From an uncultured Gammaproteobacteria bacterium (GTDB taxonomy: Bacteria; Patescibacteriota; Microgenomatia; JALYQM01), in assembly GCA_964403585.1 (NCBI GenBank), contig CAYOFQ010000001.1, positions 140,456-204,455 on the forward strand: a stretch of DNA of 64,000 bases, in the 5' to 3' direction. The notes below the pieces were generated by a model. The model searched no databases. It was given only the letters and a program-made list of their open reading frames with translations, and was not told where the DNA came from. The number at the start of each line of letters is the position of its first letter. The first letter of the stretch is position 1. This document shows, one piece after another, positions 30,532 to 52,098 of the stretch. The position numbers and the translations under genes are program-made.

Positions 30532-31401
30532 ATGGAACCTACCCAACTACCGGATAAGCTCAGCACTCTCGTATTCCTACGCAGAAATGAAGAAGTCGTC
30601 CTGGCAATGAAAAAACGTGATCTCGGTAAAGGGAAATGGAATGGCGCGGGAGGTAAAGTAAATCCTGACGAATCAGTCCTACAAGCAGCTATTCGTGAAA
30701 CCAAAGAAGAAATCGGTGTTACACCAATCAAACTGGAACAAACGGCCTTACTCAATATCTATTATATCGACAAACAACAACCTGAAGTTTGGGAGATCCA
30801 CGTATTTATTTGTACCGAGTGGGAAGGCGAGCCACAGGAATCTGAAGAAATGCGTCCGCAGTGGTTCAAATTAGACAACCTCCCCTTTCAGGATATGTGG
30901 CCTGACGATAACTATTGGTTGCTAAAAGCTTTAACGGACGAAAAAGTAATCGGAGATTTTATTTTTCGTGACGGTAAAATACTTTCATATAAAATGGCTC
31001 CCATGCCCTCCCCTAATCCGCTGGCAGTAACAATTATTTGTATAAACGAAGACGGAGATCTGCTACTTAAGAACAGAACTAAAGAACCTGACAAAGGTAA
31101 GTGGGAATTAATCGGTGGCCATGTCAAGACCGGTGAACGCCTCATTGAAGCCGTGCAACGAATTTTGCAAGATAAAGTGAATATCCACGAGACACTCTCG
31201 ATTGAATTTACCGGACACTACTACGACGACCCAAACCGTCACCCTGGCAATCCCTGTCTTCCGCTCACCTTCAAAGTGCGTACACCAAATGCGCATTTAA
31301 AAGAAATCAAAAATGCCTCCTGGTTCGAACCTAAATTATTATCTGAACTTGAATACGCCCTGGATGATAAACAAATGCTTCTGGACATCGGAATTCTGTG
31401 A
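30532..31401 (+). CDS. Tandem Nudix hydrolase (MutT-like N-domain plus a second degenerate Nudix domain)
   Basis: Box 1 GGKVNPDESVLQAAIRETKEEIGV. Second domain GGHVKTGERLIEAVQRILQDKV. Confidence 0.65.
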   Translation: MEPTQLPDKLSTLVFLRRNEEVVLAMKKRDLGKGKWNGAGGKVNPDESVLQAAIRETKEEIGVTPIKLEQTALLNIYYIDKQQPEVWEIHVFICTEWEGEPQESEEMRPQWFKLDNLPFQDMWPDDNYWLLKALTDEKVIGDFIFRDGKILSYKMAPMPSPNPLAVTIICINEDGDLLLKNRTKEPDKGKWELIGGHVKTGERLIEAVQRILQDKVNIHETLSIEFTGHYYDDPNRHPGNPCLPLTFKVRTPNAHLKEIKNASWFEPKLLSELEYALDDKQMLLDIGIL

Positions 31402-31571: not shown

Positions 31572-32225
31572 CTATTTCTTCAAACTCTGGAACTCCGGTT
31601 TGGTAAGGAACGGATTTGGCGGCTTAACACCTGTCTCATAAGCCTTCTGTAATTCATCAATAAATCCGCTCAAAAAAGCATAGGGTTCACTAACACTCAT
31701 CAGCCGGTTCAGGGTATTACTCCACAAATAATCTATCCACTCATAACGCAACCCCTGGTATTTCCACTCCAGAGCTTCTATCAGGAGTGCCGTAATATCC
31801 GAAATCGCGAGAATTGCTGACTCGTCCGCTGAAAGGTTATCTTCATTGGTCTCCAGTGTTAAGTATTCTGCAACGTACAATCGTATTGATTCACTGGCCT
31901 GTTGCTCGGCCTGTCTGGTAGCCTTGCGTATATCCATATCGGTAAAGTACGATTTATAGCTCGGGCTGCCCGAAGGAATATCCAGTAAAATACTCTCATT
32001 CCAGTCGTGAGTAACTGCGACCTTCAAGAGATTTTCAAAGTTAATTGAGTAACCCTGCTTCTTAAAAACTTCGCCAAACAAGAGCGTCAAGGACACGACT
32101 TTAAAATTGTGCTCGGCTACCGAATCTGTCCGGTTGGGATCAATGCCGGCAAACATCACACCACCGGTGCGCGGCATTCGACTGAGGTTATCAAGTACTT
32201 GGACTAATGTTAGTAATTTCTTCAT
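31572..32225 (-). CDS. HD-domain phosphohydrolase, YfbR-like 5'-deoxynucleotidase family
   Basis: RMPRTGG...SVAEHNFKV...VTHDWNESILLDIP matches the YfbR pattern (RxGW...ESVAEHS...HD..E). Confidence 0.6.
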   Translation of the reverse strand: MKKLLTLVQVLDNLSRMPRTGGVMFAGIDPNRTDSVAEHNFKVVSLTLLFGEVFKKQGYSINFENLLKVAVTHDWNESILLDIPSGSPSYKSYFTDMDIRKATRQAEQQASESIRLYVAEYLTLETNEDNLSADESAILAISDITALLIEALEWKYQGLRYEWIDYLWSNTLNRLMSVSEPYAFLSGFIDELQKAYETGVKPPNPFLTKPEFQSLKK

Positions 32226-32237
32226 CTATTAATTATA

Positions 32238-33449
32238 TCAGCTCAGTTTTGCAACCAATTCCTCCCGTGTTAGTGTTTCTTGCGTACGATTCTGTAAGTC
32301 TTTCAGTTGGCATTTTCCCTGCTCTGCTTCATCGGGACCAATAATAACAACGTAGGGAATTCCTTTCTGATCGGCATATTTTAGTTGTTTTTCCAGTTTA
32401 GAAGCCGGGTTAGGGAAGACTTCGGTATTAATTCCTTGAGCGCGTAACTGTGCTGCAATCTGTAGAGATTGTGCTACGAGTTCAGGCGAAAACACAGCAA
32501 CTAAGACCTGCGTTAACGTCTTAAATTCAGGAATAAGACCAAATTCCTCTGCCGCTTCTAAAGTTCGATCAAATCCCAGGCCAAATCCGGTGGCAGGAAT
32601 CGTCTGTCCGGAAATATTCTCCACCAGCTTATCGAATCGCTCCCCGCCCAGCACTGAACCACCGCTTGAACCGGGAATTTCAACCTCCCAGATCGGTCCA
32701 GTGGAATATGAAAAAGAGCGGGCGATAGTCGGATCAAATCGATACCAGCGTTCATCAAAACCACTATCTTTAAGATAGTTGAGAATGAAAGTAATCGTCT
32801 CATTAGGTTGCATATTCATAACGTACGAAAAATAATTTTGCGCCTGATTCCGCTCTATTCCTTTTGCGACCATCTCTTCAATCACTCCCTGTTCTCCAAT
32901 CTTCTTCAGCTTGTCTATGGCAGCAATAGCCACGTAGGGAATGTCCTTCAATAAGGCACGATCATTAATAAGTACCGTAGCCTGTTTAAAACCTAATTCA
33001 CGGTAAATATCCAAAGAAAGCGCAATTACTTCCGCGTCCGCCATCGGTGAGTTTACCCCGAAGATATCTGCATCACACTGGAGAAACTCACGGTAGCGGC
33101 CTTTTTGAGGTTTTTCAGCTCTGAATGAGCTCTGAATCTGATACCGCTTAAAAGGAAACACAATCTGGTTCTGGTATTGAGCAACTACCCGGCATGTTGG
33201 AACTGTTTGATCATAACGAAGAGCTATGTTTCTTCCTCCCGGATCTTCGAATTTGAAAAACAATTTTTCATCTTCACCAACTTGTCCTTCAAAAATCTCA
33301 AGCGGTTCAATAGTCGGTGTTTCAAGTGGGTCATATCCCCATTTTTCAAATACCCCGATTATCTTTTTCTTTAACCAATTTCGTTTCAAAGCATCCACGG
33401 GCAAAAAATCCCTGGTTCCTTTAACATTTTGCGCGAGTTGATTTGACAT
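32238..33449 (-). CDS. hisS: Histidyl-tRNA synthetase
   Basis: GTRDFLP near the N-terminus, class II motif 2 FRAEKPQKGRYREFLQCDADIFG, motif 3 region GGERFDKL. Confidence 0.8.
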   Translation of the reverse strand: MSNQLAQNVKGTRDFLPVDALKRNWLKKKIIGVFEKWGYDPLETPTIEPLEIFEGQVGEDEKLFFKFEDPGGRNIALRYDQTVPTCRVVAQYQNQIVFPFKRYQIQSSFRAEKPQKGRYREFLQCDADIFGVNSPMADAEVIALSLDIYRELGFKQATVLINDRALLKDIPYVAIAAIDKLKKIGEQGVIEEMVAKGIERNQAQNYFSYVMNMQPNETITFILNYLKDSGFDERWYRFDPTIARSFSYSTGPIWEVEIPGSSGGSVLGGERFDKLVENISGQTIPATGFGLGFDRTLEAAEEFGLIPEFKTLTQVLVAVFSPELVAQSLQIAAQLRAQGINTEVFPNPASKLEKQLKYADQKGIPYVVIIGPDEAEQGKCQLKDLQNRTQETLTREELVAKLS

Positions 33450-33458
33450 AAATACTCC

Positions 33459-34100
33459 TTATTGAATTTGTACTACTTTGGCTGAAATAGTAAAAGCCTC
33501 AGTATCTTTATTAATAGTAATTATTCCTCCACTAGGTTGCAGTACCTCAGTACAATTTGTAAGTAAAGAAAGCGCCACACTCCCTGAGCCACAAGCACTC
33601 TCCTCCACACACGAGTCAGTCTCTCGGACATAGATAGTAGGGTAGAGTACGTCGTTTTTATACAGCAGTAATCCAAAGGCTGGTAAGCCATAAGTACGTG
33701 CTAAATCTTTCAGGAACAACCGTTTATCTTGTGGACTTTCATTCATATAAATATACCCTATGCCTTCAAACAATACGGTTGACTGAACAATTGAATACCG
33801 CAACGGTAATGTGATAATCGTAAGATCATCAATATTTACAAATTCAACTGCACTGTTCACACCGCTGGTATAAAAAGCGCCACGCATGCCAAACGTCGAA
33901 GCAAAGGCAAGCGTCCCGTTTATACTTAATTCTCCACCCATCATCTCAAAAGCAGGCAACCCGGCTTTTGTTGACACATAACCGACCTGCTCAACCTGAG
34001 CCAGGAACAAAGAATTTAATGTTGCCCGATCGAGATCGTCACTATCCCAAACAATTATGGTCGTATTGCCATTAGCAATAAGATATTTCTGTGTTTGCAT
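33459..34100 (-). CDS. DapF/PhzF-fold epimerase-like protein (diaminopimelate-epimerase-like). ATG 34100 is preferred, with a gggag SD.
   Basis: LIANGNTTIIVWD (like DapF GLGNDFxVVD) and the second catalytic-Cys motif ESACGSGSVAL. Confidence 0.45.
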   Translation of the reverse strand: MQTQKYLIANGNTTIIVWDSDDLDRATLNSLFLAQVEQVGYVSTKAGLPAFEMMGGELSINGTLAFASTFGMRGAFYTSGVNSAVEFVNIDDLTIITLPLRYSIVQSTVLFEGIGYIYMNESPQDKRLFLKDLARTYGLPAFGLLLYKNDVLYPTIYVRETDSCVEESACGSGSVALSLLTNCTEVLQPSGGIITINKDTEAFTISAKVVQIQ

Positions 34101-34413
34101 AAAAAACTCCCGTTCTTTAAACTCCACTAAAAAATAATCCAGTGAAATCTAAGGAACGAGAGTCAAGGAAGCTTCGCTTCCGCAGATCCAGCCGATAGGC
34201 TGGAAACCGCCTTTATAAAAAAAGAGACCTCCCGCGGTCCCATCCTTATTCTAATAAGTATTACTACTTAAAAGCTCTTGGCACCGCTCTCCATCTCAAA
34301 TGAGACGACAAGGGCTGTTGTACTTTACGGCTCAACTCCCGTAGCATATTTTGATGCTCAGCTCGTGGATCGTGACTCCACTGATAACGCTTTATACGTA
34401 TTCAATTAGGGGA
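34101..34413 (-). promoter_or_regulatory. T-box riboswitch leader (probable His specificity) upstream of the DapF-like-hisS operon, including an intrinsic terminator at 34217-34245
   Basis: The minus-strand RNA contains AAUAAGGAUGGGACCGCGG (rc of 34232-34250), 17/19 identical to the T-box consensus AAUUAGGGUGGNACCGCGG, with a UGGG bulge complementary to CCCA. This is followed by hairpin GGGACC-GCGGGA-GGUCUC + U7. CAC codons occur in the upstream stem region. Confidence 0.55.
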
Positions 34414-34443
34414 ATAATAGCACATATATCCTATAGTTGTCAA
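34414..34443 (-). promoter_or_regulatory. Sigma70-type promoter TTGACA-18-TATTAT driving the T-box leader
   Basis: -35 is the rc of 34438-34443, -10 is the rc of 34414-34419, spacer 18 nt. Confidence 0.45.
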
Positions 34444-34446
34444 ATT

Positions 34447-34983
34447 TTAGTGCTTAAATGTATCAAAATCACCTCGCCAAAATCGTTCAATGAAAGATTG
34501 TGAACCTTTTCCAAACGGCATCTTCAGCTCCAGCATCAAATCATATTCTTCTTTATCTACAAAGTGGATATCTGCCAGTTCCTGATTATTCATAATAATC
34601 GGTTGCCCCGTGTACTTTCCCATATATTTATACGAAAAATACGAAGTATATTTATAACGCGTATACTCTTTACAGACAAATGTCAGTTCACAATCAAACC
34701 CCGCTTCTTCCAGAAGTTCGGCATGAGCCGTTTGTAACGGTGTCATGCCATGGATACAATGCCCTGCAGCGGTAACTGCCCAATATAACGGGTTGGTACG
34801 CTTCATTGCACTGCGCTGCTGTAATAATAAACGGTTCATCTCATCGTAAATTAAAATTGAAGACTGTCGGTAGGTAAAAAAAGGGTTAGTATCTGCTTGA
34901 AGACGGACGACTTCCCCAATGACTTTATCACTTTTGTCGACCAGGTCGAGTATTTCGTCAGGAGCGTTAGTCTTGTCCCGCAT
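34447..34983 (-). CDS. Nudix hydrolase (IDI-like subfamily)
   Basis: GHCIHGMTPLQTAHAELLEEAGF Nudix-box variant, 178 aa. Confidence 0.55.
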   Translation of the reverse strand: MRDKTNAPDEILDLVDKSDKVIGEVVRLQADTNPFFTYRQSSILIYDEMNRLLLQQRSAMKRTNPLYWAVTAAGHCIHGMTPLQTAHAELLEEAGFDCELTFVCKEYTRYKYTSYFSYKYMGKYTGQPIIMNNQELADIHFVDKEEYDLMLELKMPFGKGSQSFIERFWRGDFDTFKH

Positions 34984-51115: not shown

Positions 51116-52098
51116 TCATTTAGTCGATCTTTAATTTCTTCCGCCGTACCCGTCACAAAATCTTTCAGTATCTGCGCTTCATGCTTAATACGTTCAGCCG
51201 CATCACTTGCCTGTTGAGTCATCTCATCCAAATCAGCTCTCACCGACGCATCCGTCGCTGCAGGAGTAGTCTGGTGCATGCTCGGACCGGATGACGTGAT
51301 TGGTGGACTTACTACCGGAACTGTTTTTGGAGTAAATCCGGTTGGAACCGCAGGAGGCACAGGTGGATACTCCCGCGCATTCATAGAGGCACCCATCGGA
51401 GCGGGTTGGTATTGCGGTGTACGGTATTTTGTCATATCTTCCATGCCAATAGTCGGACCGGTAGGTTGTTGAATAGGCTGTTCCTCACCTTCAGTTCGTT
51501 TTTCATCCACCTTTTCTTTTACCTGATCATACGTTTCCTGTGTTTTCGCTTTAGCCTTATTGAATAAAGCGGTCGCTCCACCATCGTCAGGCTGTGCCTC
51601 CACTTCTTCTTTCACTGAAGGTGAAACTAAAATCGTATCATCACCCACGCGGGAAATTCCGGCAGCATCAATTTCTTTACGACCACCTTTCAGGTCATTA
51701 AGCACTCCTTCAGAAACTTCATATTTCTGAATCTGTCCGGATTCCGAATCAAAGAAGAAATCTGTTACCGAACCGAGTTGAGAACCCTCCTCAGTAACTA
51801 TTTTTTTACCGAGTAGAATATCTTTAGCTTTAAAATTTTTAATCGAGTCTGCCGAAACTTCACGAATTATATTGTCCGAATCGATCATAATCGCGTCACT
51901 GCCGATTGAATCGACATCCCGTAACTTAAGCACTTGTGAACTCGCTTTAAACATTCCTCCCGAAGATATCAGCAGGGCGTCGACAACTCCGGTATCCCGG
52001 TTGTACAATACATCGTCTATAGAGTTAATCTCTTTTCCTACCTGTTTGGCTATAACTTTCATGCCTTTTAAGGTACTTCCTTTAACTAACATAGGCAA
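51112..52098 (-). CDS. Tandem PRC-barrel domain protein with a Pro-rich C-terminal region
   Basis: Two PRC-barrel-like segments (GMKVIAKQVGKEINSIDDVLYN... and LLGKKIVTEEGSQLGSVTDFFFD...). Confidence 0.5.
   Translation of the reverse strand: MPMLVKGSTLKGMKVIAKQVGKEINSIDDVLYNRDTGVVDALLISSGGMFKASSQVLKLRDVDSIGSDAIMIDSDNIIREVSADSIKNFKAKDILLGKKIVTEEGSQLGSVTDFFFDSESGQIQKYEVSEGVLNDLKGGRKEIDAAGISRVGDDTILVSPSVKEEVEAQPDDGGATALFNKAKAKTQETYDQVKEKVDEKRTEGEEQPIQQPTGPTIGMEDMTKYRTPQYQPAPMGASMNAREYPPVPPAVPTGFTPKTVPVVSPPITSSGPSMHQTTPAATDASVRADLDEMTQQASDAAERIKHEAQILKDFVTGTAEEIKDRLND

Follow-up and report, generated by a model that had tools for sequence, protein, structure and literature searches.

The 64,000-nucleotide (nt) window analysed here, a stretch of contig CAYOFQ010000001.1 in which all coordinates without a locus name are numbered, carries on its minus strand a leader of ~305 nt (34443..34101) and, directly after it on the same strand, an operon encoding a racemase-like protein (gene 1), histidyl-tRNA synthetase (hisS) and an HD-domain protein. 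Judged from its sequence, this leader is very likely a histidine-specific T-box riboswitch of reduced architecture that controls all three genes. A conserved, covarying structure, the hallmark T-box motifs, mutually exclusive pairings and a match between the leader and tRNA-His were all found by computation. An earlier note on this DNA had proposed both a T-box riboswitch and its specificity for histidine, and the analysis bears out both proposals: the hallmarks are present in 6/6 leaders, the structure covaries, and a covariance model built on other genomes finds the window leader with E = 3.6e-10.

The discriminator domain of a T-box is marked by a purine string, 5'-RRRxG-Stem III-AA-3', and by a 7-nt bulge whose UGGN pairs with the NCCA end of the tRNA; a G•U wobble at the base of helix A2 senses the aminoacyl group (PMC7583486). 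Each of these hallmarks (AAGAG-Stem III-AA, UGGGACC and the basal G•U) is present and invariant in all six full-length leaders that could be compared. The histidine specifier CAC, followed by the purine G, occupies 34374..34372 in the apical loop of Stem I, and the loop sequence AGUCACG is likewise the same in 6/6 leaders. The elements of the window leader, from its 5' to its 3' end, are as follows:

34414..34443, minus strand: promoter-like site TTGACA-18-TATTAT, with TG ahead of the -10 hexamer (11/12 matches)
34360..34391, minus strand: ultrashort Stem I, with basal helix AGC/GCU, internal loop GUUAUCA / GA, apical helix GUGG/CCAC and 9-nt loop AGUCACGAU
34343..34358, minus strand: Stem II hairpin AGCA(U)/(A)UGCU with loop CAAAAU; 4/4 pairs covary (AGCA/UGCU, ACAG/CUGU, CUGA/UCAG)
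34317..34342, minus strand: Stem IIA ACGG/CCGU, which covaries, with loop GAGUUGAG and a candidate IIB pseudoknot
34283..34314, minus strand: extra stem P4, between the IIA/B element and Stem III, with invariant internal loop UC...GAGC
34251..34279, minus strand: purine motif AAGAG (34279..34275), Stem III (34274..34251, GUAA loop), then AA
34229..34250, minus strand: T-box sequence, made up of AAU, the A1 5' strand AAGGA (34247..34243), the bulge UGGGACC (34242..34236) and the A2 5' strand GCGGGAG (34235..34229)
34217..34241, minus strand: small hairpin H1, GGGACC/GGUCUC (GGGACC-GCGGGA-GGUCUC, 34241..34224), and U7 (34223..34217)
34167..34211, minus strand: two extra hairpins within the loop that caps A2, GGCGGUUUCCAGCC..GGCUGGAUCUGCGG and GGAAGCGAAGCUUCC, specific to the window genome
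34151..34162, minus strand: antiterminator 3' strand CUCUCGUUCCUU, made up of CUCUCGU (pairing with GCGGGAG, with a basal G•U) and UCCUU (pairing with AAGGA); invariant in the clade
34101..34163, minus strand: intrinsic terminator, a 58-nt hairpin (34163..34106, ~25 bp, -30.4 kcal/mol) and U6 (34106..34101)

Both helices of Stem I are paired in 100% of cells across the six leaders, with 4/4 apical and 2/3 basal pairs changing on both sides. The long form of Stem I is absent, together with its specifier internal loop, AG bulge and distal-loop elbow-binding platform; the internal loop takes the form GUU..A /.A and holds no consistent tandem G•A pairs. A stem I candidate put forward earlier, GUGGA-GUCACGA-UCCAC, lies at 34381..34365 and does present a histidine codon in its apical loop, as an ultrashort hairpin rather than a classical Stem I. 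In L007, the internal loop of Stem I carries an additional hairpin on its 5' side, at ~1395-1445 (CCCGAUG-CAC-AUCGGG, nested in CCCC..GGGG), which, by coincidence or not, also has CAC in its loop.

The candidate IIB pseudoknot joins the loop sequence GUUG to CAAC at 34320..34317 and changes between members (GUUG/CAAC, GUCU/AGAC, GGC/GCC), so that 3/4 pairs covary and 79% of cells are paired; four of the six leaders support it, with only two pairs left in L008 and L019. P4, which is missing from the Rfam T-box consensus, covaries in its apical helix (GUCUC/GAGAU, ACUC/GAGU, GUCC/GGAC, ACC/GGU), and in Stem III 9/10 pairs do so.

The sequence first noticed was a 19-mer, AAUAAGGAUGGGACCGCGG (34250..34232, minus strand), credited with 17/19 matches to the T-box consensus. 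The 19-mer is there and includes UGGG; the agreement is lower than claimed, with three mismatches among the 17 specified bases of the Rfam consensus core. A core match of this quality is expected 0.13 times per window by chance. The core motif by itself is weak evidence, and its weight comes from its position and its conservation in other genomes: the T-box sequence is invariant in the window, L025, L007, L008, L013, L019 and L023. A second core-like site (51340..51355) was rejected, as it falls within an open reading frame (ORF) and at chance level.

The leader family and its ligand

The leader belongs to a family comprising the window and eight further Patescibacteria loci, for which metagenome contigs and contigs encoding homologs of gene 1 supplied the decisive material. 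Two blocks, the core AAUAA(A)GGAUGGGACCGCGGGA and, downstream of it, CUCUCGUUCC, are kept in L007, L008, L013, L019, L023 and L025/L026, with diverged flanks around them. L024 is another copy of the window. At the equivalent position 5' of the leader, a TTGACA-type site is found in L008 and L013 and is visible also in L007 and L019; the sigma70-like promoter that had been proposed for the window is indeed present there, at 34443..34414.

Covariation was assessed in a hand-curated alignment of six full leaders (alignment A2) with a 51-pair structure in the antiterminator state. Standard pairs fill 95.9% of its cells, compared with 35-45% after a shift of the 3' partners by 1-3 columns, and in 29 of the 51 pairs both sides change. 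The alignment has a covariation score of 0.672, against 0.189 in shuffles, and none of 500 shuffles reaches the observed values. Both parts of Stem I, Stem II, Stem IIA, the IIB pseudoknot, P4 and Stem III are the helices that covary. A MAFFT alignment (A1) was set aside because Stem I of L007 and Stem II were misregistered; RNAalifold, run on the raw MAFFT alignment, independently recovers most of the helices, with compensatory changes.

A further line of evidence comes from a covariance model, R1, built from the decoding domain only of four type B leaders, that is, leaders with a tRNA gene directly after their terminator hairpin; the window and the T-box core were excluded from it. R1 matches the window at 34396..34275 with 47.5 bits (E = 3.6e-10), and elsewhere in 157 kb it matches only L025 and the window copy L024.

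In sister loci the gene of the putative ligand lies next to the leader. A tRNA-His gene is found 3' of the leader terminator in L007, L008, L013, L019, L023, L014 (at a cut end) and L030/L031, separated from it by ~90 nt in L030/L031 and by 1-50 nt in the others; in L008 and L023 it begins one base past the U-run. The genes, all with anticodon GUG, are:

L007, 1693-1767: tRNA-His (GUG)
L008, 964-1036: tRNA-His (GUG)
L013, 1652-1723: tRNA-His (GUG)
L019, 1097-1169: tRNA-His (GUG)
L023, 117-188: tRNA-His (GUG)
L014, 66-138: tRNA-His (GUG)
L031, 1313-1389: tRNA-His (GUG)

The six that were extracted (L007, L008, L013, L014, L019 and L023) encode G-1 and have the discriminator C73. Thus, both the CAC specifier and the UGGG of the bulge match this tRNA, UGGG being complementary to C73-C-C-A, which supports the histidine specificity suggested by the earlier note. 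The riboswitch therefore appears, from the arrangement of these loci, to control the gene of its own ligand tRNA-His in sister genomes. Genes between tRNA-His and hisS in the type B loci are unrelated cargo.

An ATG follows the tRNA-His 3' end by 1-3 nt in five loci (L007 1769, L008 1039, L013 1725, L019 1172, L023 191). This leaves no room for a ribosome-binding site, so the mRNA would be leaderless, or nearly so, after 3' processing. The ATG at L013 1725 opens an ORF of seven codons only, and a promoter-like site (1725-1754) lies ahead of the next gene.

The distribution of the leader is patchy, with many related hisS loci lacking it. No T-box was found at the more distant racemase-like loci L027, L028 and L032-L040, and at the four nearest reference loci (L001-L004) the leader is not present and Rfam gave no match.

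Antiterminator, terminator and level of control

The strand CUCUCGUUCCUU can pair with each half of the T-box sequence, leaving UGGGACC as a 7-nt bulge. In alignment A2, 100% of the A1 cells and 97.6% of the A2 cells are paired, and the basal A2 pair (columns 168-205) is G•U in 6/6 leaders. The same strand doubles in the window as the 5' arm of the long terminator. Folding the antiterminator against the terminator, as had been suggested, thus does yield mutually exclusive pairings, and they run through 34162..34151. Across members the long hairpin ends in ..AACGGGAG(G), next to which comes a run of U5-U7 in every one, with energies of -27 to -34 kcal/mol (-23 in L007); this layout is shared by all members and the apical sequences are unrelated. 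The loop between the A2 strands measures 66 nt in the window, where the two extra hairpins add to its length, and 14 to 41 nt in other members. Rfam matches to a miRNA, FopS and STnc540 are artefacts of the long hairpin together with the small one.

The small hairpin H1 lies inside the A2-capping loop, and its 5' arm is the tRNA-binding bulge itself. Its energy is -8.4 kcal/mol in the window, -6.8 to -8.4 generally and -12.6 where the stem is extended to 7-8 bp (L013, L023). GGUC and the U-run are conserved in the clade with reduced Stem I, and the hairpin is absent in L031. In the window the U-run can fold back onto AAUAAGGA; in six of the seven members tested, the fold of lowest energy pairs it with AAUAAAGGA, and the small hairpin thereby covers the entire 5' half of the antiterminator as the long terminator folds. 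H1 and the terminator form the ground state in 7/7 members, the antiterminator state being 10-22 kcal/mol less stable. From this conservation and these energetics, H1 may be an accessory element that acts as an anti-antiterminator or as a pause. An RF00230 alignment that places the antiterminator onto the 3' arm and U-run of H1 was rejected, since it brings mismatches and only G•U and A-U pairs, and since the true partner lies downstream.

These features suggest how the leader might work, and from them we infer tRNA binding, the direction of the switch, termination as the main level of control and the part played by H1. The GUG anticodon of tRNA-His would pair with CAC in the apical loop of the ultrashort Stem I without an elbow-binding platform, with the decoding domain completed by Stem II, the IIA/B pseudoknot and the extra stem P4. 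An uncharged tRNA could pair through its C73-C-C-A end with UGGG in the bulge and stabilise the antiterminator, composed of A1 (AAGGA/UCCUU), A2 (GCGGGAG/CUCUCGU), Stem III and the purine flanks. The antiterminator would then occupy the 5' arm of the long terminator, allowing RNA polymerase to read through into the operon and leaving GGGAG free. When uncharged tRNA-His is lacking, H1 would fold over the bulge, the 58-nt terminator with U6 would form, and transcription would halt just before the AUG; any transcripts that escaped in this OFF state would have their ribosome-binding site paired.

An alternative reading is that control in the window genome is exerted through translation only, as in the actinobacterial ileS T-boxes, with the long hairpin serving as a Shine-Dalgarno sequestrator and not as a terminator. 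We regard this as unlikely. It draws on the terminator 3' arm, which contains the Shine-Dalgarno sequence GGGAG (34111..34107) 6 nt ahead of the AUG, and on L025, which is laid out as in the window, with ATG directly after the U-tract and GGAGG in the 3' arm of the hairpin. Furthermore, an ultrashort Stem I with an apical specifier is ascribed to translational T-boxes, in which insertions at the top of A2 are also frequent (PMC7583486). However, a ~25-bp stem with a U-tract is a textbook intrinsic terminator, and U6 follows the hairpin in the window just as U5-U7 is conserved in all members. The same hairpin stands ahead of a tRNA gene in at least six sister loci, where regulation through translation is impossible. 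In the type B loci termination must be the output, given that the U-tract is always present, that the tRNA gene comes next, and that no promoter-like site lies between leader and tRNA gene in L008 or L013. Both levels may well act together in the window: a translational layer beside termination is plausible there and in L025, and for the window we put its presence at about an even chance.

The earlier note had assigned the terminator to H1 (34241..34217), to be blocked when tRNA-His pairs with UGGG. The hairpin and its U7 are present as described and fit the terminator pattern; GGUC and the U-run are conserved in the reduced-Stem-I clade, with a lengthened stem in L013 and L023, and the sharing of the 5' arm with the tRNA-binding bulge makes tRNA and hairpin mutually exclusive. 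As the regulated terminator, H1 is nonetheless improbable, and it is not the structure that alternates with the antiterminator. The T-box partner CUCUCGUUCCUU lies 66 nt downstream, as the 5' arm of the 58-nt terminator, and from the sequence 5' of the H1 U-run no A1/A2 antiterminator is possible; the aminoacylation-sensing discriminator is not yet made when the polymerase stands at that U-run. In addition, the hairpin is weak (-6.8 to -8.4 kcal/mol), L007 has two A's between stem and U-run, and L031 has no such hairpin at all. Termination at H1 would also give no account of the -30 kcal/mol terminator or of the invariant CUCUCGUUCCUU block.

Several points weigh against reading the leader as a T-box that attenuates transcription. 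Transcriptional T-boxes generally need a long, elbow-binding Stem I for fast tRNA capture (PMC7583486), and across the six leaders a canonical K-turn at the base of Stem I is not consistently found, nor can a Stem II S-turn motif be recognised from sequence. Since A1 and A2 do not vary within the clade, the case for this key helix depends on conservation and on one compensatory change, in L031 (A1 = GAAGAA/UUCUUC). Alignment A2 contains only six full-length leaders and was adjusted to the structure by hand. In tRNA-His, G-1 pairs with C73 (TBDB, PMC7778990); with C73 already paired in the mature tRNA, the fourth bulge pair must compete with G-1:C73. The window's 64 kb contain no tRNA gene, and the tRNA-His sequences compared are those of sister loci. 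A search with the Rfam T-box model, which had been suggested as a check, gave a mixed result: no Rfam family matches anywhere in the window at the gathering threshold, and the targeted RF00230 search returned a full-length weak match of 22.4 bits (gathering 93, E = 0.006) in which 75 Stem I model positions shrink to 6 nt. RF00230 finds no match in L008 at E up to 10, and even L031 stays below its 93-bit threshold.

The R1 test is free of the weakness of hand-fitting, having been built without the window and without the T-box core. That the resemblance is accidental or the leader a decayed relic, with a structured 5' untranslated region that does not sense tRNA, is scarcely credible: this would accord with a core expected 0.13 times per window, an Rfam score far under gathering and the many related hisS loci that lack the element, but covariation spans 11 helices, no variation is seen in the specifier loop, bulge or purine motifs among genomes whose HisRS is ~62-77% identical to the window's, the leave-one-out model matches with E = 4e-10, and CAC and UGGG both fit the adjacent tRNA-His.

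Relation to known T-boxes and attenuators

A canonical relative of the element occurs in L030 and L031. Stem I of their leader is long, its distal loop reading GGUGAAA and its internal specifier loop GAA-CAC-G, and in L031 the leader scores 64.7 bits against RF00230 (E = 8e-14). It shares the GGGACCGCGGGA core and the CUCUCGUU strand with the window family and has no small hairpin; leader, terminator, tRNA-His and a homolog of gene 1 follow one another in that order. On these sequences, the window element is best described as a reduced-Stem-I relative of a canonical CPR histidine T-box.

With canonical transcriptional T-boxes (RF00230; Bacillus tyrS, glyQS and Firmicute hisS leaders) the window family has in common a specifier codon followed by a purine, the series RRRxG-Stem III-AA, A1, a 7-nt UGGN+ACC bulge and A2 with its basal G•U, an antiterminator 3' strand that doubles as the 5' strand of a U-tract intrinsic terminator, and a position upstream of an aminoacyl-tRNA synthetase gene. 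In contrast to them, it has no long Stem I, K-turn or elbow platform and carries the specifier in an apical loop, its Stem II has only 4-5 bp, the extra stem P4 is present, the A2-capping loop of 14-66 nt holds a conserved hairpin and U-run, and the host is a CPR bacterium.

The translational class II ileS T-boxes of Actinobacteria, which have an ultrashort Stem I (Sherwood et al. 2015 via PMC7583486; Mycobacterium tuberculosis ileS, PDB 6UFG), resemble the family in other respects. They too present the codon apically on a short Stem I without elbow contact, retain the Stem II and IIA/B region, and carry insertions atop helix A2; in the window, as in these T-boxes, the ribosome-binding site lies in the strand paired by the OFF-state hairpin. 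The window family differs in reading His and not Ile, in having P4 but no recognised Stem II S-turn, and in belonging to another phylum. As for its output, the OFF hairpin has a conserved U-tract followed in sister loci by a tRNA gene, which indicates transcription termination, at least in those loci.

A third comparison is with three-hairpin attenuators (the 1:2 / 2:3 / 3:4 scheme of trp and his leaders, and PyrR-controlled pyr). The window family likewise has three mutually exclusive pairings, in which the 5' half of the antiterminator is sequestered by H1, the terminator cannot form alongside the antiterminator, and the OFF state holds both H1 and the terminator. The effector of the window family, however, would be a tRNA read directly by RNA and not a translating ribosome or a protein. 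A His-rich leader peptide was looked for by sequence inspection and rejected, as the leader's sole ORF contains one His codon and is not conserved among leaders.

The family is distinguished by its CPR host, the ultrashort Stem I with apical specifier, P4, the accessory hairpin in the A2 loop, the overlap of terminator and ribosome-binding site and, in sister genomes, apparent control of the tRNA-His gene itself. Whether these features define a CPR-specific class of T-box is evenly balanced in our judgement. Such a class would attenuate transcription without contacting the tRNA elbow, with P4 compensating in the decoding domain; H1 and its U-run would serve as an anti-antiterminator or would introduce a pause, giving slow tRNA capture more time; and in sister lineages an RNA-only autoregulatory loop would act on the tRNA-His gene together with hisS.

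The literature search found no paper that links T-boxes with CPR/Patescibacteria, no T-box controlling a tRNA gene and nothing relevant on riboswitches in CPR, an absence from the searched library that is no proof of novelty. If our reading is correct, the T-box mechanism extends to the Candidate Phyla Radiation in the form of an element missed by the standard Rfam model, and supplies a natural counter-example to the rule that terminating T-boxes need a long Stem I and that an ultrashort Stem I is translational. A T-box over the tRNA gene of its own ligand raises the question of how the cell avoids shutting off its supply of tRNA-His. In organisms of minimal metabolism, the element would also link histidine and tRNA-His homeostasis to an uncharacterised protein that resembles histidine racemases.

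Operon genes and related loci

The three genes of the operon are as follows:

33459..34100, minus strand: gene 1, histidine racemase-like, CntK_N family, 213 aa; ATG directly 3' of the terminator U-run
32238..33449, minus strand: hisS, histidyl-tRNA synthetase, 403 aa; TIGR00442, 348 bits (cut-off 287), anticodon-binding domain present
31572..32225, minus strand: gene 3, HD-domain / YfbR-like 5'-deoxynucleotidase-like, 217 aa; same gene 3' of hisS in the closest relative

The start of gene 1 at 34100 is where homologs of 213 aa with 100% coverage place the ATG. Its product, described earlier as a DapF-like epimerase, more precisely resembles members of the histidine racemase (CntK/HisR) family: it matches NCBIfam HisR with E = 1e-9, and its nearest solved structure is the histidine racemase 9cr1 (E = 5e-8), with MMGGE(L/F)SxN and CxSG motifs in common. 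The operon was also said to end in hisS; it does contain hisS, as the second of three genes, and the HD/YfbR-like gene comes after it. The nearest HisRS homologs in reference genomes (64-68% identity) come from Patescibacteria and Candidatus Amesbacteria metagenome-assembled genomes, in agreement with the CPR-like genome that had been suspected.

NUDIX hydrolase genes flank the operon on either side (30532-31401, plus strand; 34447-34983, minus strand), and the NUDIX and YfbR-like neighbours recur in relatives. In those closest for gene 1 (P0002, P0003 and P0004), a gene for short-form HisG (ATP phosphoribosyltransferase) precedes the racemase-like gene and hisS, and the ~440-nt gap 5' of HisG could accommodate a leader. 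Short-form HisG normally depends on the HisRS paralog HisZ.

A cluster of tRNA-His, racemase-like gene and hisS also exists without a T-box (L035, L037). In L034-L037 (e.g. L037 60-400; L035 100-330), tRNA-His has its own TATAAT box and is followed by tandem repeats whose unit includes the 3' part of the tRNA (GATTCTCGGCTTCCACC...), then by the racemase-like gene and hisS, with no T-box; L037 has an interrupted tRNA-like copy upstream as well. The contig of L029 begins (1-70) within a terminator of the family type (..GAGAACGGGAGGTTTTTTATG), after which come genes for an inosine-uridine nucleoside hydrolase, an unknown product and the racemase-like protein, an order which indicates that the regulon varies in its first member. 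In L001 (3030-3130, a UBA1400 genome) the racemase-like gene adjoins hisS, but its leader differs: it is AT-rich and contains two near-repeat hairpins, AACCAGGUUUAAAAAGGCUGGUU and AACCAGCUGAAAAGGCUGGUUUUUUU, which could represent a different type of attenuator.

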